Shown here: positions 4,544-56,271 of the stretch, piece after piece
Position numbering within the stretch: position 1 is the stretch's first letter
How the letters are laid out: every line of letters starts with the position of its first letter
IMG/VR virus record: IMGVR_UViG_3300045988_047070
Direction: 5' to 3' (one strand)
From: a virus
DNA length: 64,000 bases
The notes under the pieces: generated by a model
The model's database searches: none
What the model saw: the letters and a program-made list of their open reading frames with translations, nothing else
What the model was told of the DNA's origin: nothing
Program-made: the position numbers and the translations under genes

Positions 4544-7291
4544 TTATTCTGTAGTTGTAGTTATTTCAGTTGATTTATATTTTGGGAAAAAGCAAAGGCG
4601 AGACCCGATGTTATTAGCCACACCAGACGAATTAGTTGTTCCCACGTCAGTCAAGCCTGCATTCAGCCCATCGTCCGAGCGACCACCAATCACCACAAGT
4701 TGCATACGATTAACTGATACGTTGGTGTAGTAGTTGTCACACCAGTAGGTAGAGGTGCTACCTCCGACTTCCGTGGCTATTATATCACCATCTTCTCCAA
4801 GCAACATCTTCTTGACGTGCCCATTTATACGACAGACATTGCCCTTCTTGTCATAACCAGTGTAAGAGGTATCGCTGAAGTTAGATGGATCGTTGGTAGT
4901 CCATAATATGGACAATCCGTCATCGCCCGTGGTGACCTGTATATTAGCCCCGTCAGTGTGTTTCCATATATGACCAAATGGATTCTCTATACCACGATAC
5001 CTGTTAGTCATCAACGTAGCATGAGTACCGTCTGAAGAGTTCTTCACTACATATGCCTTTTCTCCCGATCCGTTCCCTAACTCATTGGTATATCCACATG
5101 GGATAAGGGGGTTATTATTATTGAAATTAGTCCAATCTGTCATTTGCGTTGGTCCCAGACCTAGGCCACCTTGGGAGAAACCGTTAGCGTCCTTTTGAGC
5201 ATTAAACGATTTTTGACTATTTAATGTAGCATATTCTACTGCAAATAGCCAGAATATAGTCTTGTGTGCTCCATATGTATACATTTCCCAACCACTACCA
5301 CGTTTTCTTGCAGCTTGGCGGAATTGGTCTCGGGTAAGGTTGGTAACAGGGCATCCTAGCAAGGAACGGTAGGTATCATCCCATTCAGCGGTGTTGTCAC
5401 CACCTCTAAAATTAATTGAATTAGGATCACTTAATTTACTAGCTCCAGCCGCCGAACATAATAAATTATCGGTTCTATACATTCTGGCTTCATATGTTGA
5501 GATATAGAACTTATCTACATGTTTATACCCAGGTAATGGAATTTCGGACAACATCATCCTAAATTTAGTGCCATTAAAATACAATTTATACCAATGTTCA
5601 GGTATCTCTGTCATAACAGCATAATCCAAATAGCTTCCACCCCATGAAAGCTCATTATCCAAATATTCTTTAACTCCACCATCTCTATCCAACAAACACC
5701 TTCTCATCTTACTCTGGATAGGTAGCTCTCTATGCAATTGAATATTACCTACTCTAACCCCATCAGGACTAGATGATGCAGTATCCCACTCAACACCATA
5801 CGCATATCTTTCTTCTAGATCTGGTATATCTTCCCAAGCTGGAGACCATTCAGTAGAAATATCACCATATTCAAGTTTAATCTTATGGATGGTGGAAATT
5901 GATGTGCCAGTTTTAGGAGAACTAAATACAACCATATGTGTATTATCAGCTACTGCATCTCCGATATTAGTAATCCATTTAAAAGTCTTACTGGCCTTCC
6001 CATTTACAAAGTCAGTCTTACTGAACTGAGCCATAGAACCTACTGCACCAGTAGAGTTATATATAGTGAACATTTCCTTATCATCACCCAACTCTCCAAA
6101 AATAGTCAATGTTACTTGTGTTCCTTTAGATATCTGTTCAGTTAGCCAGTAATTAGCCATCTCATACTCGGCATTACTCACTTTCTTCCCCGATCCCAAT
6201 AACAGGTTTCTGCCATATACTGGAAGCTTACGATACTTGCCGTCATCCATTAAAGCTTTTGATCCGTCACCTGTAGTATGTATTACTACTTCCTTAACAT
6301 TAGGATCAGTAGAATTATCTGTAACACTTGCCTGTATAGAAATTCCATCAGTTACCGGAATTAAATAATCATTATTGACCTGAGTTTCCACATCTAAATT
6401 CTGACGTATCCACATTTGTATAGAACAATGATTAACCCCCATAGTTTGTTGCGCATAAAACCAAAAAGAATTATCACCATTGGTGTTATATCCGCCAAAA
6501 AGACTTGATATATACGCAGGATTATCTCTAATTGGGAGTGTATTAACAAAACCGTTTGGAAGCTTCTCTAGTAATGTATTATAGTCTTCTTGAGATATAG
6601 ATGGAGTATCGCCGTTTGCCACTTTCATGAAGATGTCAAATACCGTATAATCCGCTAAATCAGCTTTAGTAGCTAATTGATCATCTACATATTTTTTGTT
6701 AACATCTACGGTAGGTATGGTGGGTCTATTAGTAAGATCGTTGTAACTACCAGATGTAGCTACAGTAGATAATGTAGGTTTATTCAATATCAATGCATCT
6801 CCTTCTGTAGCATTCCAATCAGCATTAACATTTACTTCGGCACCAGCAGCAATGCCATTCAACTTTGTCTTATCTGAAGGTAACATCAAACCAGCTAAAG
6901 CTGTAGTAGATGCAGGAAGATTCAATTCTATATTTTCTACTACATTGGTTACTAAGTTCCTTTTATCCAGAGTAATAGAGATACCTGTTGCTGTAATATT
7001 CTTAGCAGCAGCTTCAATTACTTCATTGATGTTTGTAACTTTAGTTTTATCTGCAGTAACATAGTCATTAGTACTTAAGCTCTTACCTTCTACTTTATCA
7101 ACTTTAGTATCAATAGCATTATATACCTCAGTAAAGTCAACTTCTGGTATATTTACTACAGACCATACACCATTTTGTCTAGCATACTGTGAACCATCTT
7201 TAGGTGCTTCTTCTACTAGTTCCCGACCATGATCACTACTTAAGTATGGTATTTTAACCCATTCCCCATTATATTTTACTTTAATTACCAT
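4544..7291 (-). CDS. tail fibre / receptor-binding protein 3 with non-diversified lectin-like C-terminal domain
   Basis: 915 aa. The N-terminus has fibre motifs (AGLMLPSDKTKLNGI, GSYNDLTNRP). The C-terminal about 190 aa aligns with the DGR-targeted domain of fibre 2: GGSTSTYWCDNYY...IGSRLCF versus GGSETTYYSDYSW...LGARLAF. Confidence 0.7.
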   Translation of the reverse strand: MVIKVKYNGEWVKIPYLSSDHGRELVEEAPKDGSQYARQNGVWSVVNIPEVDFTEVYNAIDTKVDKVEGKSLSTNDYVTADKTKVTNINEVIEAAAKNITATGISITLDKRNLVTNVVENIELNLPASTTALAGLMLPSDKTKLNGIAAGAEVNVNADWNATEGDALILNKPTLSTVATSGSYNDLTNRPTIPTVDVNKKYVDDQLATKADLADYTVFDIFMKVANGDTPSISQEDYNTLLEKLPNGFVNTLPIRDNPAYISSLFGGYNTNGDNSFWFYAQQTMGVNHCSIQMWIRQNLDVETQVNNDYLIPVTDGISIQASVTDNSTDPNVKEVVIHTTGDGSKALMDDGKYRKLPVYGRNLLLGSGKKVSNAEYEMANYWLTEQISKGTQVTLTIFGELGDDKEMFTIYNSTGAVGSMAQFSKTDFVNGKASKTFKWITNIGDAVADNTHMVVFSSPKTGTSISTIHKIKLEYGDISTEWSPAWEDIPDLEERYAYGVEWDTASSSPDGVRVGNIQLHRELPIQSKMRRCLLDRDGGVKEYLDNELSWGGSYLDYAVMTEIPEHWYKLYFNGTKFRMMLSEIPLPGYKHVDKFYISTYEARMYRTDNLLCSAAGASKLSDPNSINFRGGDNTAEWDDTYRSLLGCPVTNLTRDQFRQAARKRGSGWEMYTYGAHKTIFWLFAVEYATLNSQKSFNAQKDANGFSQGGLGLGPTQMTDWTNFNNNNPLIPCGYTNELGNGSGEKAYVVKNSSDGTHATLMTNRYRGIENPFGHIWKHTDGANIQVTTGDDGLSILWTTNDPSNFSDTSYTGYDKKGNVCRINGHVKKMLLGEDGDIIATEVGGSTSTYWCDNYYTNVSVNRMQLVVIGGRSDDGLNAGLTDVGTTNSSGVANNIGSRLCFFPKYKSTEITTTTE

Positions 7292-38855: not shown

Positions 38856-39125
38856 TTAACTTATCTTATAACCCAAAAGTGTTAATAATTCATAAAATTT
38901 GTTAATATCCCTGAAGTAAAGTGAATATGAAATCATCATATGAGCCATACCTTCCTCCATAGGATTCATTAATCTCAGATCTGATACTTTCAAAGCTTTA
39001 GTACCATCAGCACAATCCCATTCACTTACTCTAGCTCTTAATAGCTCAAAATCACTAAACTCGTAGTAAAGCTGGTTGTCTCTGATTTCAAACCCTTTAT
39101 CTTTTAATTCTTGTTCAAATATCAT
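38856..39125 (-). CDS. hypothetical protein, first gene of minus-strand block
   Basis: 89-aa ORF adjacent to the divergent control region. Confidence 0.5.
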   Translation of the reverse strand: MIFEQELKDKGFEIRDNQLYYEFSDFELLRARVSEWDCADGTKALKVSDLRLMNPMEEGMAHMMISYSLYFRDINKFYELLTLLGYKIS

Positions 39126-41004: not shown

Positions 41005-41622
41005 ATGAAATGTATTATTATTGGACACGAATTCGCAGAGGCAAACACAGGTAACTTGTATTGTAAACTAGAAGTAAGACCTGCAAATGATGAGTGGGCT
41101 GCATCTTTCAACTATGTAATGTTTATTACAGAGGCAATGAAAGAAGCCTTAGAAGCTAGATTTCCTAAAGAAATATATCTGCAAGAAATACGTATGCAAA
41201 CACCTGAGCCATTTAACAGAGTATGGGCTACAGATGGTAACAATCACATGCAAGGTGAAATAGTCTGCAACGCTAAAGGCGATCCTATCGTATTTAATGA
41301 CATCAAAGTCGTAATACGTACATTACCTGATGGCACACCTGCTAGAGGTGAAGATGCTGAGAAGCTACTAGAATCTAGCTGGCGTAGAGGTATTGAAAAT
41401 GGTACTATCTTACCAATTGGTGAAGGTACAGATGTACCAGATAACAATATTGGACAAACTGTAGGAGGAGCAGATGCATTTGCGGGAGCACAATCAGCTG
41501 GAGATCCAGAGAGTCTAGAGACATCTCAACCAGATCCACTACCTACAGGTAACGTTGTAGTGCCGGGTAACCGACCACAACGACCACAGCAACAAGCTGG
41601 AATCAGAGTACCTAGAGTATAA
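41005..41622 (+). CDS. hypothetical protein, paralog of 39427-39834 with Pro/Gln-rich tail
   Basis: 205 aa. AAGGAGG lies 8 nt upstream of the ATG. There is a tandem ATCAAACAATTAA repeat in the leader (40961, 40977). Confidence 0.65.
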   Translation: MKCIIIGHEFAEANTGNLYCKLEVRPANDEWAASFNYVMFITEAMKEALEARFPKEIYLQEIRMQTPEPFNRVWATDGNNHMQGEIVCNAKGDPIVFNDIKVVIRTLPDGTPARGEDAEKLLESSWRRGIENGTILPIGEGTDVPDNNIGQTVGGADAFAGAQSAGDPESLETSQPDPLPTGNVVVPGNRPQRPQQQAGIRVPRV

Positions 41623-42766: not shown

Positions 42767-42845
42767 TTCTGTGTAGTTTAAGTGTCTAACACATGGTAGA
42801 ATCCCCTGCTAAGGGCGAATGCAGGTTCGAATCCTGCCACAGAAA
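42767..42845 (+). ncRNA. tRNA-like element T1 (anticodon not assignable)
   Basis: 7/7-bp acceptor TTCTGTG/CACAGAA and a canonical T arm GCAGG TTCGAAT CCTGC. The best anticodon-arm fold has a mismatch, and its loop TAGAATC lacks U33/R37. Confidence 0.45.
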
Positions 42846-45621: not shown

Positions 45622-46053
45622 AATTCTTTTTGGTTCAGGAGTATACTTTTTATATGCATTGCCTGTGAAGGTAGTGCATATTTTTACTATTAGATCATCA
45701 GAAAATGACAAGCATGTGGGGCGTAAGTAGTATTTTTATGCAGGAGAAGAAGAATGGCAATTGTTCTAATTAGTACTGATAATTGCAAATACTATGATCG
45801 TGCGGACGTTAAAATCATGCCGTTAATAAGAATTGTACTGGCAATACAATTCTGCTACAACGTAAAATATGTTATATAGCCGATTATAAGAAGTTTTATG
45901 TAAGAGTTTTTTAATATTTATTTTGCAAGCATAAAACTTTACGATGACACTTGTTATTAGTTGCTCATAGTACAATATGAGTTGTTGTTAATCAACAATC
46001 GTTCAATCAAAACCCTCTCCGTAGTTGTACATACGGAGACGTCATCAAATTGT

Positions 46054-46620: not shown

Positions 46621-46876
46621 TTACCGCCAGTTACTAGTCCTCAAGTCTATAATTCTTAAATTGTTAAGATATGGTGGTCATTCCCCTAAAGCATGTTAAA
46701 CCTAACGCCCTAAGCCCATAAACGGTATGTGAAGATGCATACTACGGGATTGTGTACTTGTACAAATGATAATCTCACAGGAGGTTATTAATTATAAGAA
46801 GGAGAAGAGGTTCCCTCTGAATAAGAAATAGGAATAAGAGGGCATGCTTATTATTTGAAACTAACACAATTGGGAT

Positions 46877-47635: not shown

Positions 47636-48219
47636 TCAGCAATTCCGCTCTGAAGAGCTATAAGCCGAAAAGAGTAGTGGGATATGAATATAGTAGTATT
47701 TCACAACGCAAGAGATATACTTGCATTGCTTAAGATCCTTTGAGACAAAAGCAGGAAGGCGAAATTAGCATCAAGACTAAAGAGTACGAGATCCATTGAG
47801 ACAGCTAGTCCTACGTACTCATATTCATTATTTTTCAGGTTTAATTAGTAGAGAGCTATAAGCCAATAATAGTTTAGTACAGTAGTAATGCCGATCATAT
47901 AAGTCTCATCGTAGCGTTGGAGTCCATTTCAGTATTAAATGATTTATTACTACTAAAGGAACCAAAAATTAGGGTGTAAGGAGAGAGATCTCCTTACATT
48001 CACTAAATATTCACGATATAAGAACTGTGTCGTGTCTTATTAGGTTTATTGGAAACTATTAGGACGAGGGTTCGATTAAGATGGTCGAGTTTAAATTGGG
48101 TGAATTCAGGGAACGCTAAACAAAAATGCTCAGAAATGACATTTTTGCATGCCAATCCTGAGCTAAGCATGTAGTACACTACATGAAAGTGCAGAGACTA
48201 CTGGAGAACTAAAGTGTTC

Positions 48220-48744
48220 TTAATTACCAGCTAGAGCGCCCAACCCTTCATTAGAAGGTGAAGAGATAGTCCAAGATTCACGAAACTTTTTAAGTTTCTC
48301 CTCAGAAATGAGGTTCCTATGAACCATTCTGTGGCAATTAGGACATAAAGTTATTAAGTTTGTAATTTCATTTTTACCACCGTTAGATACAGGTATAATA
48401 TGATGAACATCACAAGAAGCTTTATTCCAACCGCATATTGCACAAGGTTGTAATAATAGAAAATTGTAAAATGATCTAGTAATAGCATTATTAGATTTCA
48501 TTCTTTTACGATAATCTTTTAATTTACAAGCATTCGTACAATACTTTGCTTTGGAAGATTGCGCTTCAAATTCCTGTTCACATACAATACATTTACATTT
48601 GTATTTCTTTCTATGTAAATTTCTGTATTTAGCAGCACATGAAAGTGAACAAAATTTTGCATTTCCTCTGTTTACCTCTCGTAAATCAGCTTGGAATTCA
48701 TTATTACAACATAAACATTCTTTTTTCATACAACCATAACGCAT
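48220..48744 (-). CDS. HNH endonuclease with N-terminal Cys-rich zinc-finger-like repeats
   Basis: 174 aa with CAICGWNKASCDVHHIIPVSNGGKNEITNLITLCPNCHRMVH. It is the only minus-strand gene inside the plus-strand block. Confidence 0.8.
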   Translation of the reverse strand: MRYGCMKKECLCCNNEFQADLREVNRGNAKFCSLSCAAKYRNLHRKKYKCKCIVCEQEFEAQSSKAKYCTNACKLKDYRKRMKSNNAITRSFYNFLLLQPCAICGWNKASCDVHHIIPVSNGGKNEITNLITLCPNCHRMVHRNLISEEKLKKFRESWTISSPSNEGLGALAGN

Positions 48745-49017: not shown

Positions 49018-49083
49018 ATATCTATAGTTTAACGGTAGAACACTGATTATTCAGTAGTGTAGGTTCGAATCCTACTAGATAAC
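49018..49083 (+). ncRNA. tRNA-like element T3 with 4-nt loop in place of the anticodon loop
   Basis: Acceptor ATATCTA/TAGATAA (6 bp plus A.A at 1-72). D arm GTTT AACGGTA GAAC and T arm GTAGG TTCGAAT CCTAC. The middle arm is ACTGA TTAT TCAGT, only 14 nt. Total length 66 nt. Confidence 0.45.
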
Positions 49084-49990: not shown

Positions 49991-50396
49991 TGGAACTTAT
50001 TTAGTAACAATCAGTGGACAAGAGTACATAGCAGTAGTAATAGGAAGCGCACCTATGCTACAGGTTGCAAGAGTGTTAAACTTAACAAAGTTCATTGATA
50101 CTGGAGAGTTAGAAATCAGTACAGAAGCAAGAACTGTATTAACTGAGAAACCGTGCGAATTTAACTTCAGACAGATCGACTTGAACATCATCAGTCCGAT
50201 GCAGGAAGTAGTACAGATACCGAAGTTACCCTACACACCTAAACAGTACAAAAAATGGTTATCATTATGTGGTGATTTAGATCGTGAAAAGTTACTTACA
50301 GATATCATGCTAACAAACCCTAGCATCAGTTACGGTGAAGCTCAAACAATCATTGATCAGTTATGGAGAGACAAAAGGAACATAGTCTCACAGTAA
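49971..50396 (+). CDS. hypothetical protein
   Basis: ORF track gives 49935-50396. The ATG at 49971 is preceded by AGGAAGGAAA. Confidence 0.5.
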   Translation: MKTLTTSGTYLVTISGQEYIAVVIGSAPMLQVARVLNLTKFIDTGELEISTEARTVLTEKPCEFNFRQIDLNIISPMQEVVQIPKLPYTPKQYKKWLSLCGDLDREKLLTDIMLTNPSISYGEAQTIIDQLWRDKRNIVSQ

Positions 50397-50839
50397 ATTA
50401 TACAGATCTGTGTGATTATCTAAACGACCGTCTAGTCTTACCCTATCTACCTAAAGTAGGAGAAGACTGGAATTTATTTGGTCCAGTCATATCACAGACA
50501 TATGGACCAGACGGAGTATTCCCTAAGCAATATAATGATAAAGAATTACTAAAATGGATACAACACAGAATCCAAGTAAGGACATTATTATTATTTGTAC
50601 AAAGGAAACTCTTTACACACCTTGCCATGTTACACAATACAAGGGCAACGGATGCAGTTCAGATGCGTATTTTCGTATCTATGCTGAACAAGTTAGGACT
50701 ACCTAGAATTTATGCTGATGAAATATTTGATAATGTACATCTGCAGTATGACATTAGGAAACCTGTTTTCGAAGATTATTATCTTATGAAAATATTAGGT
50801 TTACCTTTTTGTTTTGAATCTAGGCCTTGTCCTTTTTAA
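50363..50839 (+). CDS. hypothetical protein
   Basis: 158-aa ORF. Confidence 0.5.
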   Translation: MERQKEHSLTVNYTDLCDYLNDRLVLPYLPKVGEDWNLFGPVISQTYGPDGVFPKQYNDKELLKWIQHRIQVRTLLLFVQRKLFTHLAMLHNTRATDAVQMRIFVSMLNKLGLPRIYADEIFDNVHLQYDIRKPVFEDYYLMKILGLPFCFESRPCPF

Positions 50840-50840
50840 G

Positions 50841-50867
50841 GTGTTAGGGGTTCGACTCCCCTAACAT
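50841..50867 (+). other. T-arm-like minihelix hairpin
   Basis: 10-bp stem GTGTTAGGGG/CCCCTAACAT closed by the T-loop-like heptaloop TTCGACT. It starts 2 nt after the stop codon. There is no U-run and no cloverleaf. Confidence 0.5.
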
Positions 50868-50890
50868 TCACTAAACAAGTTAGTTTGATT

Positions 50891-51454
50891 ATGAAGAGAG
50901 AAGATGAAGACCTTCTTATTCAGCAAGCTAAGCTTGGTAAGCAAGATGCTTTTACAGAGCTTTATGATCGGCATCATAAGCTTATTCGATACATTATCTA
51001 TGATATTGTAAAGAATGAAGATGTAGCAGATGACTTATTATCTGTTACCTTCACAAAAGCATTTAGTAGATTAGAATCTTATGTAAACCCTATTTCATTT
51101 GAAATGTGGTTAAAAACTATAGCAATTAACACTGCAATAGATTATATAAGATCTTCTAAGAATGAGAAACAGAATCATTATATAGATTCTGAGGACAATT
51201 ACATTCAGTTAGATAGTAACGATCTCAGTCCTGAGGAAGTTATTATGAAACAGGAAACTGTTGAACAACTGAAAGTAGCTCTACATAAATTAAGATCTAA
51301 ATATCGTAACATATTAGAATTACGATATTTCAAAGGCTTAAGTTATGAAGAACTTGCAACTGAGCTTGGCGTGCCAATAGGAACTGTAAAAAGTGACTTA
51401 AACAAAGCTAAGAAGAGATTGCGAGAATTCTTTGACAACATTAACAATAACTAA
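50891..51454 (+). CDS. ECF-type (sigma-70 family group 4) RNA polymerase sigma factor
   Basis: Region 2-like segment FTELYDRHHKLIRYIIYDIV..DVADDLLSVTFTKAF. Region 4 HTH segment LRYFKGLSYEELATELGVPIGTVKSDLNKAKKRLREF. Confidence 0.8.
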   Translation: MKREDEDLLIQQAKLGKQDAFTELYDRHHKLIRYIIYDIVKNEDVADDLLSVTFTKAFSRLESYVNPISFEMWLKTIAINTAIDYIRSSKNEKQNHYIDSEDNYIQLDSNDLSPEEVIMKQETVEQLKVALHKLRSKYRNILELRYFKGLSYEELATELGVPIGTVKSDLNKAKKRLREFFDNINNN

Positions 51455-51470
51455 CAAATACTTACACATC

Positions 51471-51854
51471 ATGACAGAAGTTGCAATCATCGCAATTATA
51501 GTCATCTTAGCTGCAATCGTTATAGGGAAGGCCAACCATAGTAACGATTTAGTTTGGAGACTATTGTTCTGTTTTAGTGTTAGCGTATGTGTGTCTATAG
51601 GTTTCCTTTACATCTTTAGCAGCAAGCCAAAAGCAAAAGCAGCTAATGTTGAGGTAATTCGTAAGGCAGGAGATTCTACTGACGCCCATGTAGTATGCTT
51701 CAACCAGATAGCAATGGCTGAAGTTACCGAACAGGATATTACAGGTCAGGAGTCATTATTATCAGAATGCCTTACATGGGCACCAGTGATGAACGTGTTA
51801 CCATTGAATAGTTTAAACTATATAATGGAACACATTATCTTTGATGACTCATAG
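51471..51854 (+). CDS. two-TM membrane protein downstream of sigma factor
   Basis: The ATG at 51471 (MTEVAIIAIIVILAAIVIG) is preferred over the TTG at 51432. A second TM segment is LLFCFSVSVCVSIGFLYIF. No anti-sigma domain recognised. Confidence 0.5.
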   Translation: MTEVAIIAIIVILAAIVIGKANHSNDLVWRLLFCFSVSVCVSIGFLYIFSSKPKAKAANVEVIRKAGDSTDAHVVCFNQIAMAEVTEQDITGQESLLSECLTWAPVMNVLPLNSLNYIMEHIIFDDS

Positions 51855-51912
51855 ATAGCGATAACACTAACAAAAACAGACAAACGAGAGAATTAGGTAC
51901 GTTCGTACCAAG

Positions 51913-53424: not shown

Positions 53425-53814
53425 ATGAATCGGTTAACTGATTTCCTTTGGTGTGCATTATTTTCGTTTATAGCGATTATAACTGTCATCAAATTGAGCC
53501 CAAATGAGGCTAAAGCAGAGCAAAAAATGCCCGAGCTTACAATTCCAAAATTCAATCCTGTAGGTCAGTTTGACCTACAGATTGATTTAAACAAGGGAAC
53601 CGCAAACGTCACAAGCAGTAACGGAATAGGTAAAGCCAACGTAACAGTAAATCATCCTACGGAGGTAATTGAGGTTCCAAGTAAACCAATTATTAAAAAG
53701 GAGGTAAAGTATGAAACAAAAACTGAATATTTGGAGAAAGTAGTACTATTTTCTTTACCAGTACCTACATTTCACGTACCAAGTGTTCAGATTCCTAAAA
53801 GCGTAGAGAGATGA
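53425..53814 (+). CDS. N-terminally anchored/secreted protein
   Basis: 129 aa with the signal/TM segment FLWCALFSFIAIITVI. Confidence 0.5.
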   Translation: MNRLTDFLWCALFSFIAIITVIKLSPNEAKAEQKMPELTIPKFNPVGQFDLQIDLNKGTANVTSSNGIGKANVTVNHPTEVIEVPSKPIIKKEVKYETKTEYLEKVVLFSLPVPTFHVPSVQIPKSVER

Positions 53815-53906
53815 AAGCAAAAAATAGTACATTGGATAAATTAGCATTTGTAGGCTTAATTATCTTCTTTATAATGTGTTTATTCTTTGCATGGTGTATA
53901 ACATAA
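53811..53906 (+). CDS. 31-aa single-TM peptide (below ORF-track cutoff)
   Basis: ATGA coupling to the upstream ORF. Sequence MKAKNSTLDKLAFVGLIIFFIMCLFFAWCIT. Confidence 0.3.
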   Translation: MKAKNSTLDKLAFVGLIIFFIMCLFFAWCIT

Positions 53907-56271
53907 CAGTTAAAGATAAAAGCTGTCGGGTCAAACGACTCCTTACCCGTGGTAAGATGAAGGAGAGTGGTATTGTAGCTGCACACTTAAAAAGCAATAA
54001 GGCAGCGTATGTTTTATTTCGATAAGTCTGATCAACTTATGATATTACGTAGACAAAGAATACAGGATGCCGTAGGGATAGTATATATTCTCCAATATAT
54101 ACATCGAGCCAAGAGCATGATAACCTATTATGAAGTTTATTCTTTTACTTCTGAAAAGTTAATAGGAAAATGGGTCAGTGTGCAAAGCCCATAAATCTTG
54201 AGAACCGGTTGGTGAAGATTAAAAGACACGATCTAGCGCAGCAGCGACGAAGACAAACATTGCAAGGGGTTACTACATAGTAAAGAGATCCTTAAGTAAG
54301 ATCAAATGAATCCCCTTAAGAATCCGTAGGCACTATCAAGTGCGGTTTCAAGTAAGGACGAAATGTAGTTTAAAGGCAAACAAGTTCCATCTGTTTGACC
54401 TAACTTTAATAGACCGAATAGCGTCCATGACGGGTCCAAACCGTCATTAAACAAATAGCTACCTTTAGTGTTCCACTCTACAGTTGTTACTATTTTTGTA
54501 GTATAGTAATAAGGATCTAGACAACATAACATTTGGCTTAGTTATGGATGAGTGTATGAAGAAAGGGTATTTAAAATCAAGAAACTGGTAGGATATACTA
54601 AAAGCTGAGTGGCTATGGCCCATATATAATAATAGAAGAGGTAACGGACTTCTATAATTACTTATGACAGGTTATCCGGAGCAGATGCCAAGTCTGTGCT
54701 TGCAAGAGCTTATAAAGATGTTCACTAGCGTAGAAAACTAGTTAAAATAGTCTTTATAAGGGGGTACTTCAGGTGCTGGGTATTAACTACGTAGGAGTGA
54801 TACTACGTCTTTTAAGATACGCTCTAAAGGATCAGGACAGGTACGATTTTAAATAAAACTGACCGAGTTTTATGTTCAATACTAAAATCAGTATAGAGTT
54901 ATGTCAGTATAAGTCATGGAAACGAACATACGCAGGAGAATAGTGGCGAAAAGACTACCTCAACCCCTAGAGACACCGTGGCGAAGTGTATAGGGTTCGT
55001 ATAAAAAGAGAAACTCACCGCTCTGGTAAACTAAAGGTGTGAGTAAGTTTAGTTTAAGCTTTCTTTAATAGATATAACGAAAGTAGGGCTTTTTATAGTC
55101 AAGGAGCTAAATTCAAGACTAATAAAATAGTGTAATAGTAAGGGAGTATTAATAGTGCGGCTTACAATATCCTTTTGTAAGTATAAATGAACCACTTATA
55201 GTATTTATTTACTCTGGGAAGGAATTCCTATCACTGGCTCGAGAGTTAACGAGACTCTTAAACAAAAGCGGAATTAACATGTCTAACTAACGTAGGTTCA
55301 ACAACCGAATAACAAATTTGTGGATGTCCTCGCTAGGGAAACTGAATGCGACCACAACTTGGCGAATGCGATTGCTTAGTAGTATCAGGGTATAATACGC
55401 AATATTATATGTTCGAGAGAAAGCGTCTCATTGAAGCTTGTAAATCTTTAAGAGTGAACGAAAGTGAACTATTACTTATAGACCTATTTATAAGCGAGAG
55501 TAAATGAGAAGAGGTGAAAGTCCTCGATCTTCATCCAAGTAAAATAAACAAAATCCTAGTCAAGGTTACGTTGGTAGCTCTGTACTTAGTAATAAGTATA
55601 TCTAGCGTAAGAGGTAGGCGTTAGTGAATAACTATATGAGACCTATAAGTTATTACAAATAACAAAGACAAAGATGGCAATTCCTTTGATCGCCTTGCAG
55701 TTTTAGCAACGTTCTGTAAAAACGACCGGACATAACTACTTGCCCGATAAGACAGTTTTAATCATTAGTAAAGTTTATATGAATCTAGATAGGTCAATCT
55801 ATACTAGTTCTATCCCTAGGATATAGTCTTGCTAACTTATTTACTTTACTATTTTTATCTGAGTAACCAGAAAAAACGTGTTGATTATTACGGATCTTCT
55901 GTAATAGAGATTACAGAATATAGTACAGCTTGGAATCAGAACCTAGAATACTCATCGATGAGTTTCATTAGCTCTGGTCACAATGCAGTATGCGGTTCCA
56001 AAGTAAGATATGACTTAGTAAACTTATAAACCTGTCTCGTTTATAAGGAGTATACCGCAATAGCGAATTATCAAGAACGGAATTATTTTGCTTATCATAT
56101 AAATTAAAGTAAAAACATATTTGCATCTTTCCTTGCATAACTTGAATGTTACACGACCGTGGTTTTTAACCTATCTGATATAAGATGATGATAAATCGTG
56201 ACGAAACGCATAGGGAAAGATGTGAGAAAATTTTCATTAATTATTAACTTATCAAAAGGAGGAATTTAAAA
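53907..56271. other. about 2.3-kb ORF-poor, GC-elevated, hairpin-rich region (candidate structured RNA locus)
   Basis: Only three short ORFs (61-76 aa) in six frames. Sampled GC is 30/60 (55321-55380) and 25/60 (54901-54960), against 19/60 in the polymerase gene. Perfect local stems lie at 54427-54447, 55027-55056 and 55897-55918. Confidence 0.5.

Follow-up and report, generated by a model that had tools for sequence, protein, structure and literature searches.

The 64,000-nucleotide (nt) stretch of viral DNA analyzed here (IMG/VR record IMGVR_UViG_3300045988_047070, hereafter the window) contains, between positions 53907 and 56271, a region of 2365 nt that probably encodes an uncatalogued long non-coding RNA of the Suoliviridae family of crAss-like phages: a family-wide, multi-domain molecule of the plus strand, in which short covarying helices display invariant loops. 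The region is non-coding, is conserved in position and homologous family-wide, and is under purifying selection along its length, and many of its helices carry compensatory changes; the finding is real and exceeds chance. Transcription of the region, its function on the plus strand, its existence as a single molecule, and a role as scaffold or decoy are what we infer from the sequences. Over the queried stretch, the window is 99.4% identical to a phage from human faeces, the uncultured cr10_1 (Crassvirales; Suoliviridae; Boorivirinae; Canhaevirus). No description of the element was found in the searchable literature, including the paper in which the delta group was defined and other peculiarities of coding were noted (Yutin 2021, PMC7886860), a Crassvirales review, and a 2026 Segatella-phage preprint on a related genus.

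Conservation of the region across the Suoliviridae

An unannotated gap of 1.9–2.55 kb occupies the same syntenic slot in every Suoliviridae genome examined, in all five subfamilies, in about 120 metagenomic relatives, and in samples of human, macaque, lemur, and respiratory origin. Its length is 2.46–2.51 kb in the Boorivirinae phages cr10, cr50, cr1, and cr55 (2.26–2.55 kb in 54 IMG/VR loci), 2.08 kb in cr6 (Bearivirinae), 2.0–2.2 kb in cr130, cr124, and Bohxovirus (Oafivirinae), 2.11–2.15 kb in cr52, cr60, and cr4 (Loutivirinae), 2.2 kb in cr115 and 1.9 kb in cr118 (both Uncouvirinae), and 2.1 kb in the lemur virus Dulem 42. A large span free of open reading frames (ORFs) also accompanies the 5' core motif described below in 49 of the 55 further loci for which both boundaries were available. 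The region is thus not unconserved junk absent from close relatives, which is part of an outcome that the first-pass annotation of this DNA had named as fatal to its proposal of a large structured RNA.

Judged by profile matches, the gaps are homologous and collinear across the family. A nucleotide profile of the Boorivirinae gaps, searched with nhmmer, matched the gaps of other subfamilies collinearly and on the plus strand only, with E-values of 1e-44 in cr115, 2e-21 in cr52, 1e-18 in cr6, 4e-15 in cr4, and 1e-11 in cr60, where a second domain matched at 3.5e-11. The flanking proteins are about 30% identical between clades, whereas blocks inside the gap are nearly invariant.

Within two well-sampled clades, the nucleotide diversity of the gap is 0.013 and 0.017, compared to 0.059 and 0.098 at the third codon positions of the adjacent genes, so that the gap is 4.6–5.9 times less variable than these and about equal to codon positions 1 and 2 (0.0145/0.0086 and 0.037/0.022). 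Polymorphism counted by phase has no 3-nt periodicity in the gap (0.009/0.015/0.014 and 0.019/0.017/0.014), whereas in real genes the diversity of position 3 is 4–7-fold above that of positions 1 and 2. Low diversity within clades together with the absence of periodicity means that the whole 2.4 kb is under purifying selection at the nucleotide level, including the 3' part, where diversity is among the lowest of the gap (0.004–0.014 per 200-nt bin).

Coding potential

The earlier statement that the region has no credible ORFs holds. The longest standard-code ORFs in 53907–56271 have 49–76 amino acids (aa), and each of the six frames of 53815–56271 contains 49–69 stops, with TAA, TAG, and TGA, all three already noticed in sampled frames, abundant throughout. 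Reassignment of TGA, TAG, or TAA extends the longest stop-free runs to 102, 85, and 139 codons, respectively, with no positional conservation of these runs among the 54 related loci; re-translation under codes 4, 15, and 25, the check suggested at first pass, therefore yields no conserved ORFs and leaves the non-coding claim standing.

Cryptic or decayed coding, whether hidden by an unusual code, heavy frameshifting, or many introns, or surviving as the remains of a pseudogene, can be regarded as close to refuted. It has precedents, as TAG or TGA reassignment and intron-split genes are known in crAss-like phages (PMC7886860), and annotators have called small ORFs in the gaps of Dulem virus 42 and Bohxovirus. 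But stops of all three kinds fill every frame, the flanking genes of the window are read by the standard code without in-frame stops, the alternative-code ORFs are short and not conserved in position, periodicity is absent, and the diversity of the gap is far below that of synonymous-type sites. No group I or II intron model matches the gap, and decay of a pseudogene would not leave near-invariant nucleotide blocks while the neighboring proteins fall to 30% identity.

The homologous gap of Dulem virus 42 (L175, 10946–13061) is filled in its annotation with about 12 ORFs of 31–102 aa and mixed polarity, and that of Bohxovirus (L174, 11345–11851) with one 168-aa ORF on the minus strand; these ORFs are probably spurious.

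Covarying helices and invariant loops

Compensatory helices across homologs, the generic mark of a structured RNA, are present, and they are clearest in the 5' domain (53907–54700), the part best conserved across subfamilies. Its core motif (54163–54232) consists of a hairpin P2 (54170-74/54188-92) followed by a helix P3 (54195-99/54215-19) that brackets an invariant 15-nt loop GAGAACCGNNUGGNG, which lies at 54200–54214 in the window as GAGAACCGGTTGGTG. P3 is fully replaced between lineages (TCTT/AAGA, TCCAT/ATGGA, GTAAT/ATTAC, CTTGT/ACAAG, and TGTAATAT/ATATTACA). In 18 core sequences from five subfamilies, 93.3% of cells are paired, compared to 28–53% when the partners are slid along the alignment. 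In 77 distinct sequences the value is 96% (32–51% slid), with 283 double-change cells (19–77 slid) and 4–6 pair types at every variable pair. The covariation score of the core, 0.57–0.73 against 0.15 or less in controls, was reached in none of 500 shuffles, a count that should not be read as a probability, since the 77-sequence alignment was fitted to the covariance model and the sequences are related; the 18-sequence core alignment and the alignment of the 5' domain were not fitted to it.

The covariance model built from the 5' core (R1, 74 positions) has exactly one match in the window, at the core itself (68.5 bits, E = 1e-18), and each genome likewise has a single copy. The model detects cr118 even though the exact motif is missing there, and it accepts about 110 of the 120 metagenome loci found by a composite pattern. 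When applied to 63 matches of the pattern in prokaryotic genomes, it left nine that are clear (at least 39 bits) and three that are marginal (21–28 bits), and rejected about 51 as chance matches. Most of the nine clear matches are on contigs of 80–101 kb, a length that fits a whole crAss-like genome binned into a metagenome-assembled genome (MAG). Several element-bearing contigs of 98.6–101.6 kb (L176, L232, L199, L208, L219, and L231) sit in MAGs labelled Segatella copri, 'Bacilli', Sphaerochaeta, and others, and look like complete crAss-like phage genomes mis-binned as bacterial. In crAss001, the Steigviridae exemplar and the sole outgroup tested, there is no comparable gap and no core motif, and the best match of the core model scores 14 bits, compared to at least 31 bits in all Suoliviridae. 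As far as tested, the element is confined to one phage family and to one fixed syntenic slot.

Covariation extends over the rest of the 5' domain. The RNAalifold consensus for a plain MAFFT alignment of the Boorivirinae and Bearivirinae sequences has 40 pairs, 27 of them compensatory; 93.5% of cells in this alignment are paired (33–52% with slid partners), 27 of 37 pairs have double-sided changes (0–8 slid), and none of 500 shuffles reaches the observed covariation. The helix scan places covarying helices at 53927-31/53945-49, 54008-12/54047-51, 54067-70/54115-18, 54124-30/54160-66 (P1), 54330-33/54340-43, and 54682-86/54692-96, all on the plus strand. In the hairpin at 54427–54447 the loop GTCCAAA is fixed and the stem varies (ATGACGG/CCGTCAT, GGTAGT/GCTACC, GGGTGT/GCATCC), with double-sided changes in four of five pairs and a closing pair that alternates between G-C and U-G. 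A further conserved block, GCTGAGTGGCTATGGCCCA (54604–54622), is found at a collinear position in Boorivirinae, Bearivirinae, and cr115.

The second conserved part is the central/3' domain (55040–55610), for which RNAalifold gives a nested multi-branched consensus, in agreement with the helix scan. Its helices are at about 55104-09/55235-40, 55118-21/55128-31, 55215-20/55225-30, and 55318-23/55352-57, and a long-range helix (55358-62/55535-39) encloses three hairpins, among them one with a CGCAA loop (55391-97/55403-09) and the GGTGAAAGTCC hairpin (55513-23). In this domain, the RNAalifold consensus of 13 Boorivirinae sequences has 73 pairs, of which 26 are compensatory, and nhmmer matches the domain in cr60 and cr4. 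In 38 loci, drawn from several subfamilies, its motif GGTGRAARTCC follows the 5' core at a distance of 1.0–1.35 kb; across subfamilies the hairpin stem of this motif has no support beyond 3 bp, and RNAalifold predicts four pairs only in a cross-subfamily MAFFT alignment of the motif region. The 3' part (55611–56256) contains hairpins at 55858-61/55868-71, which covaries, at 55897-905/55910-18, and at about 56023–56045.

An unbiased scan of the 17-sequence Boorivirinae alignment found 14 Watson-Crick helices with at least two covarying pairs, compared to one in a parallel-orientation control, and these helices are spread from 53.9 to 55.9 kb. Altogether, beyond the 5' core, about 16 helices and the nested central domain carry compensatory changes. 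Few invariant blocks survive in the strict 17-sequence MAFFT alignment, and a search for antisense targets of the invariant blocks within the window gave nothing above shuffles.

Two resemblances of conserved blocks to known RNAs were considered. An invariant sequence ending in UGGNG (N variable) recalls the UGGN of T-box RNAs, which pairs with the 3'-NCCA end of tRNA; it is a low-confidence lead in phages that carry tRNAs and a transfer-messenger RNA (tmRNA). The likeness of GAAAGUCC and AGAACCGG to CR-I and CR-V of RNase P was dropped because their order is reversed, P4-type complementarity is missing, and no RNase P model matches.

Composition, strand, and transcription signals

The density of hairpins noticed at first pass is borne out by counting. 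The gap contains 17 registers (about ten distinct hairpins) of perfect stems of at least 7 bp with loops of 3–12 nt, compared to 2.5 ± 2.0 in 200 dinucleotide shuffles, none of which reached 17, and to 7 and 9 in equal-length flanks. The stems named then are present at 54427-47, 55029-56, and 55897-918, as are the CGAAAG boxes at 55078 and 55459. The elevated GC content reported with them was a mistake: it is 0.357 in the gap, 0.343 in the whole window, and 0.422 and 0.357 in the flanking genes, and 60-nt windows reaching 0.42 make up 10% of the gap but 27% of the flanking genes. As for direct repeats, TAACTA(A)CGTAGG at 54784 and 55284 and GAATGCGA at 55344 and 55364 do occur twice, but such two-copy matches are at chance level, and the gap contains no repeat families.

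The RNA is favored to lie on the plus strand by three lines of sequence evidence. In three alignments, the consensus minimum free energy (MFE) is lower on the plus strand than on its reverse complement (-27.2/-19.4, -39.8/-27.7 for the central domain, and -6.3/-5.1), and column shuffling brings it near 0 (about -1.6 for the central domain). G.U exceptions to Watson-Crick pairing outnumber A.C exceptions, 21 to 12 and 12 to 3; a permissive form of this wobble test was swamped by noise, and stricter versions gave a modest preference for the plus strand. Finally, the conserved GAAA-type and A-rich loops are on the plus strand, which is the coding strand of both neighboring genes.

The same data bear on a cis-acting DNA element, such as an origin (an option also raised at first pass), a site of packaging or partition, or an extended regulatory region. 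The hairpins would then form in single-stranded or supercoiled DNA, as in hairpin promoters and single-strand origins, and the conserved blocks would be protein-binding sites. The position of the gap, which borders the replication module and has genes for an AAA+ ATPase and a DNA polymerase downstream of it, would suit such an element, as would helices that are almost purely Watson-Crick with few G.U pairs and an unremarkable folding energy, and transcription of the gap is only inferred. Nevertheless, we consider this explanation quite improbable. The gap has no iterons; DnaA-box-like sites occur at the expected density (2 vs 3.5; 39 vs 38); AT-rich 40-mers are rarer in it than elsewhere; and the minimum of the cumulative GC skew is outside it, at 39123, where the strands switch divergently. 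At least about 16 covarying helices with GNRA-like or A-rich loops on one strand over 1.7 kb are far above any known origin or hairpin-promoter cluster, and the plus strand folds better than the minus strand in all three alignments.

The RNA interpretation and its alternatives

For the long non-coding RNA the following scheme may be proposed. Its transcription would proceed rightward, in the direction of the early/middle operon that leads from the extracytoplasmic function (ECF) sigma factor gene into the replication genes. It would fold into a string of mostly local domains made of short (4–8 bp) helices, which would hold up invariant unpaired loops and junctions such as GAGAACCGNNUGGNG, GUCCAAA, CGCAA, and UGAAAGU. 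These exposed sequences could be its working surfaces, and during infection the RNA might serve as a scaffold or decoy to which proteins or RNAs of the phage or the host bind. Its appearance is not that of a compact fold sustained by its own energy.

Several observations count against the proposed RNA. The folding energy of the gap is not below that of shuffled sequences: 300-nt windows have z-scores from -0.8 to +0.7 (mean -0.35), which is unusual for large ornate RNAs, whereas flanking coding sequence often reaches -2 to -7. Few of the pairs are G.U (about 2% of cells), and the plus strand is preferred to a modest degree. Scans of the gap for sigma-70 promoters, intrinsic terminators, and the Bacteroidota -7 motif (TAnnTTTG) gave matches at or below chance, so the ends of a transcript cannot be placed and the RNA may be part of a longer one. 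In the helix scan, the covarying helices exceed the parallel-orientation null, but the total number of conserved helices does not. The 3' 650 nt have little conservation between clades, no supported helix spans more than about 180 nt, so that nothing ties the domains into one fold, and the largest core alignment depends on the model fitted to it, as noted above. The original idea of a large structured RNA or a new RNA class is thus upheld by synteny, purifying selection, and covariation, while the GC content and global folding from which it was argued were the wrong reasons.

In the rightward early block (50300–51900, about 41600, and about 45200), the folding of coding sequence is far more stable than that of dinucleotide shuffles. 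Inside the ECF sigma factor gene, z is -7.1 at 50900–51199 (MFE -85 vs -55 kcal/mol), and at 41601 and 45201 it is about -7, compared to a median of -1.15 for the whole window.

That the whole 1.9–2.5 kb is a single structured RNA throughout the Suoliviridae, with a biochemical role of its own, is a tentative extension of the proposal, about which we are rather doubtful. Such a molecule, 3–4 times as large as GOLLD, would exceed in size every structured RNA known from bacteria or their viruses, ribosomal RNAs and introns excepted, and could be, for example, the RNA core of a ribonucleoprotein with which the phage commandeers transcription or translation in its host. The main alternative, though an unlikely one, is a cluster of separate RNA elements: several small structured RNAs, or a structured 3' untranslated region, intergenic spacer, or 5' leader within a polycistronic mRNA. 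Each would act independently, for instance in processing, in stability, or in controlling the translation of the downstream gene. A cluster would agree with the local nature of all supported helices (spans of about 180 nt or less), with the 1.0–1.35 kb of more variable sequence between two conserved cores, with global folding z-scores of about 0, with the separate conserved hairpin that other clades have just 5' of the downstream ribosome-binding site, and with the many RNAs of 100–200 nt in upstream intergenic regions of these phages. Against it, the total length is held at 1.9–2.55 kb, the order and spacing of blocks are conserved in five subfamilies, and purifying selection is uniform over 2.4 kb, spacers included; moreover, internal promoter- or terminator-like signals are not above chance, and no self-cleaving ribozyme model matches inside.

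Comparison with known RNA families

A scan of 53700–56400 with Rfam 15 gave no match at gathering score, and even with permissive filters at E ≤ 10 the matches were those expected by chance, such as RAGATH-27 on the minus strand, whose 22 bits fall short of the gathering score of 76. Nor was there any match in the homologous gaps of nine other Suoliviridae genomes. The candidates listed at first pass, namely ROOL, GOLLD, HEARO, raiA, and group I or II introns, are therefore set aside, none of their models having matched the gap at E ≤ 10, and membership in OLE was rejected on the same ground. A group I intron was also rejected as the identity of the gap, since RF00028 (the P3–P9 core) matches 48009–48292 and nothing in the gap; for a group II intron there is, besides the missing model match, no ORF longer than 76 aa in the gap and no reverse transcriptase domain in the neighbors. 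Group I and II introns, which are common in crAss-like phages (PMC7886860), resemble the proposed RNA as structured RNAs with sizes between hundreds of nucleotides and kilobases. An intron, with or without an ORF, is nevertheless not what the gap contains, because the genes on both sides are complete and separate, with their own stop or their own Shine-Dalgarno sequence (SD) and ATG, and the gap has neither an intron model match nor an intron ORF: no homing-endonuclease or reverse-transcriptase ORF was found in it.

GOLLD and ROOL, which form homo-oligomeric cages (PMC12286853) and contain multistem junctions and pseudoknots, are like the element in being large, conserved, multi-domain non-coding phage elements with tRNA or non-coding RNA genes nearby and with many covariation-supported helices. 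Unlike them, the element is 3–4 times longer, has neither an excess of folding energy nor supported long-range helices, and, as far as tested, occupies one fixed syntenic slot of one phage family. The average length of ROOL is 581 nt, and its authors name rRNAs, GOLLD, and group II introns as the only larger ones (PMC5737381).

In the working model, the element resembles OLE as a long RNA with highly conserved unpaired nucleotides that would be binding surfaces for partner proteins. OLE is a bacterial RNA of about 600 nt, linked to genes for ole-associated proteins, that acts as a ribonucleoprotein scaffold. The element differs from it in having no homology by Rfam and no recognizable conserved partner gene adjoining it.

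Structured RNAs of known families are found elsewhere in the same genomes. The early region of the window contains, all on the plus strand, a Hatchet ribozyme (45694–45820, 102.7 bits), RAGATH-9 (46674–46852, 94.8 bits), and the group I intron mentioned above (65 bits), and in the same zone relatives have a group I intron, RAGATH-7, -9, and -20, and Hatchet, the last at times in two or three copies. Strong matches to permuted tmRNA and tRNAs also occur upstream of the gap in these loci. We found no link of Hatchet or RAGATH RNAs to crAss-like phages in the literature searched. The RAGATH and Hatchet RNAs share genomes, strand, and the direction of early-region transcription with the element, but they are 100–210 nt long, match Rfam strongly, and lie 5–10 kb upstream of the gap; they indicate that these phages use many structured RNAs.

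The nearness to tRNA genes that the first-pass annotation mentioned for ROOL and GOLLD holds only loosely for this region, the nearest tRNA-like matches being at 49018–49083 and 59533–59600. Together with 42767–42845 these make three Rfam tRNA-like genes on the plus strand of the window (37–54 bits), of which ARAGORN reports 59533–59600 only, with a two-base 'anticodon' (tt) that cannot be assigned. Possible explanations are unusual tRNAs, tRNAs that contain introns, or candidate suppressors. In many Suoliviridae a tmRNA, permuted according to the Rfam matches, lies 1–4 kb upstream of the sigma factor gene (L102, 3420–3688; L173, 6639–6874; L174, 6748–6937; annotated in L168, L169, and L171); neither Rfam nor ARAGORN finds a tmRNA in the window.

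Gene context

Genes of the window point leftward as far as about 38 kb and rightward beyond about 39 kb; the element is in the rightward block. The gene order around it is: ECF-type sigma factor, a small hypothetical protein, a protein of about 480 aa, a protein of about 130 aa, the gap, two hypothetical proteins, AAA+ ATPase, and DNA polymerase. Apart from the ECF sigma factor and the AAA+ ATPase, the neighboring proteins are unrecognized and give no clue to a partner; in particular, no conserved adjoining gene for an RNA-binding partner is recognizable among them. The element, which is ORF-free under all codes tested, syntenic, and of low diversity, lies between the stop of the 129-aa gene (53814) and the 184-aa gene starting at 56272, and its 3' limit is the SD AAAGGAGG and ATG of the latter gene (56257–56274, plus strand), which is conserved across the family.

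At the 5' side, an unannotated hydrophobic micro-ORF of 31 aa, MKAKNSTLDKLAFVGLIIFFIMCLFFAWCIT (53811–53906, plus strand), lies outside the RNA candidate. Its ATG overlaps the TGA of the upstream gene (ATGA), and six of the seven other Boorivirinae representatives, although their DNA has diverged, have here a 28–32-aa ORF with the same hydrophobic pattern; no counterpart was found in other Suoliviridae subfamilies. From these features, the micro-ORF probably encodes a small membrane peptide translationally coupled to the upstream gene. It ends at 53906, and the non-coding element therefore starts at 53907, exactly where the first-pass annotation had put the boundary.

Two further hairpins were noted near the boundaries. 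A perfect 10-bp palindromic hairpin, CTGTAGGTCAGTTTGACCTACAG, at 53558–53580 inside the upstream 129-aa gene was flagged on both strands by the terminator scan. In the cr50, cr1, cr55, and cr6 lineages, a conserved hairpin CGTAGGTGGAATCAACCACGGAATCA lies directly 5' of the SD of the downstream gene (L101, about 5850–5900; equivalents in L002, L003, and L004) and is missing from the window's own clade; it may be a translational control element.

The largest unannotated gap of crAss001, about 0.9 kb (L360, 42966–43870; record 95965–96869), is unrelated to the Suoliviridae element and adjoins a gene with a TROVE domain (Ro60-like). Ro proteins bind Y RNAs, and hence this gap may encode a Y-RNA-like RNA.

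Implications

The Suoliviridae are one of the major phage families of the human gut, and a strongly conserved element, for which annotation pipelines give either nothing or small spurious ORFs, makes up about 2.3% of each of their genomes. The case also indicates that large functional RNAs can escape screens built on GC content or folding energy. With its 74-position covariance model and one copy per genome, the element provides a compact and specific marker of the family. If it is an RNA, a much bigger member would join the short list of very large non-coding RNAs of bacteria and phages (GOLLD, ROOL, and OLE), and its fixed context between the ECF sigma factor cluster and the replication genes makes its function experimentally approachable.

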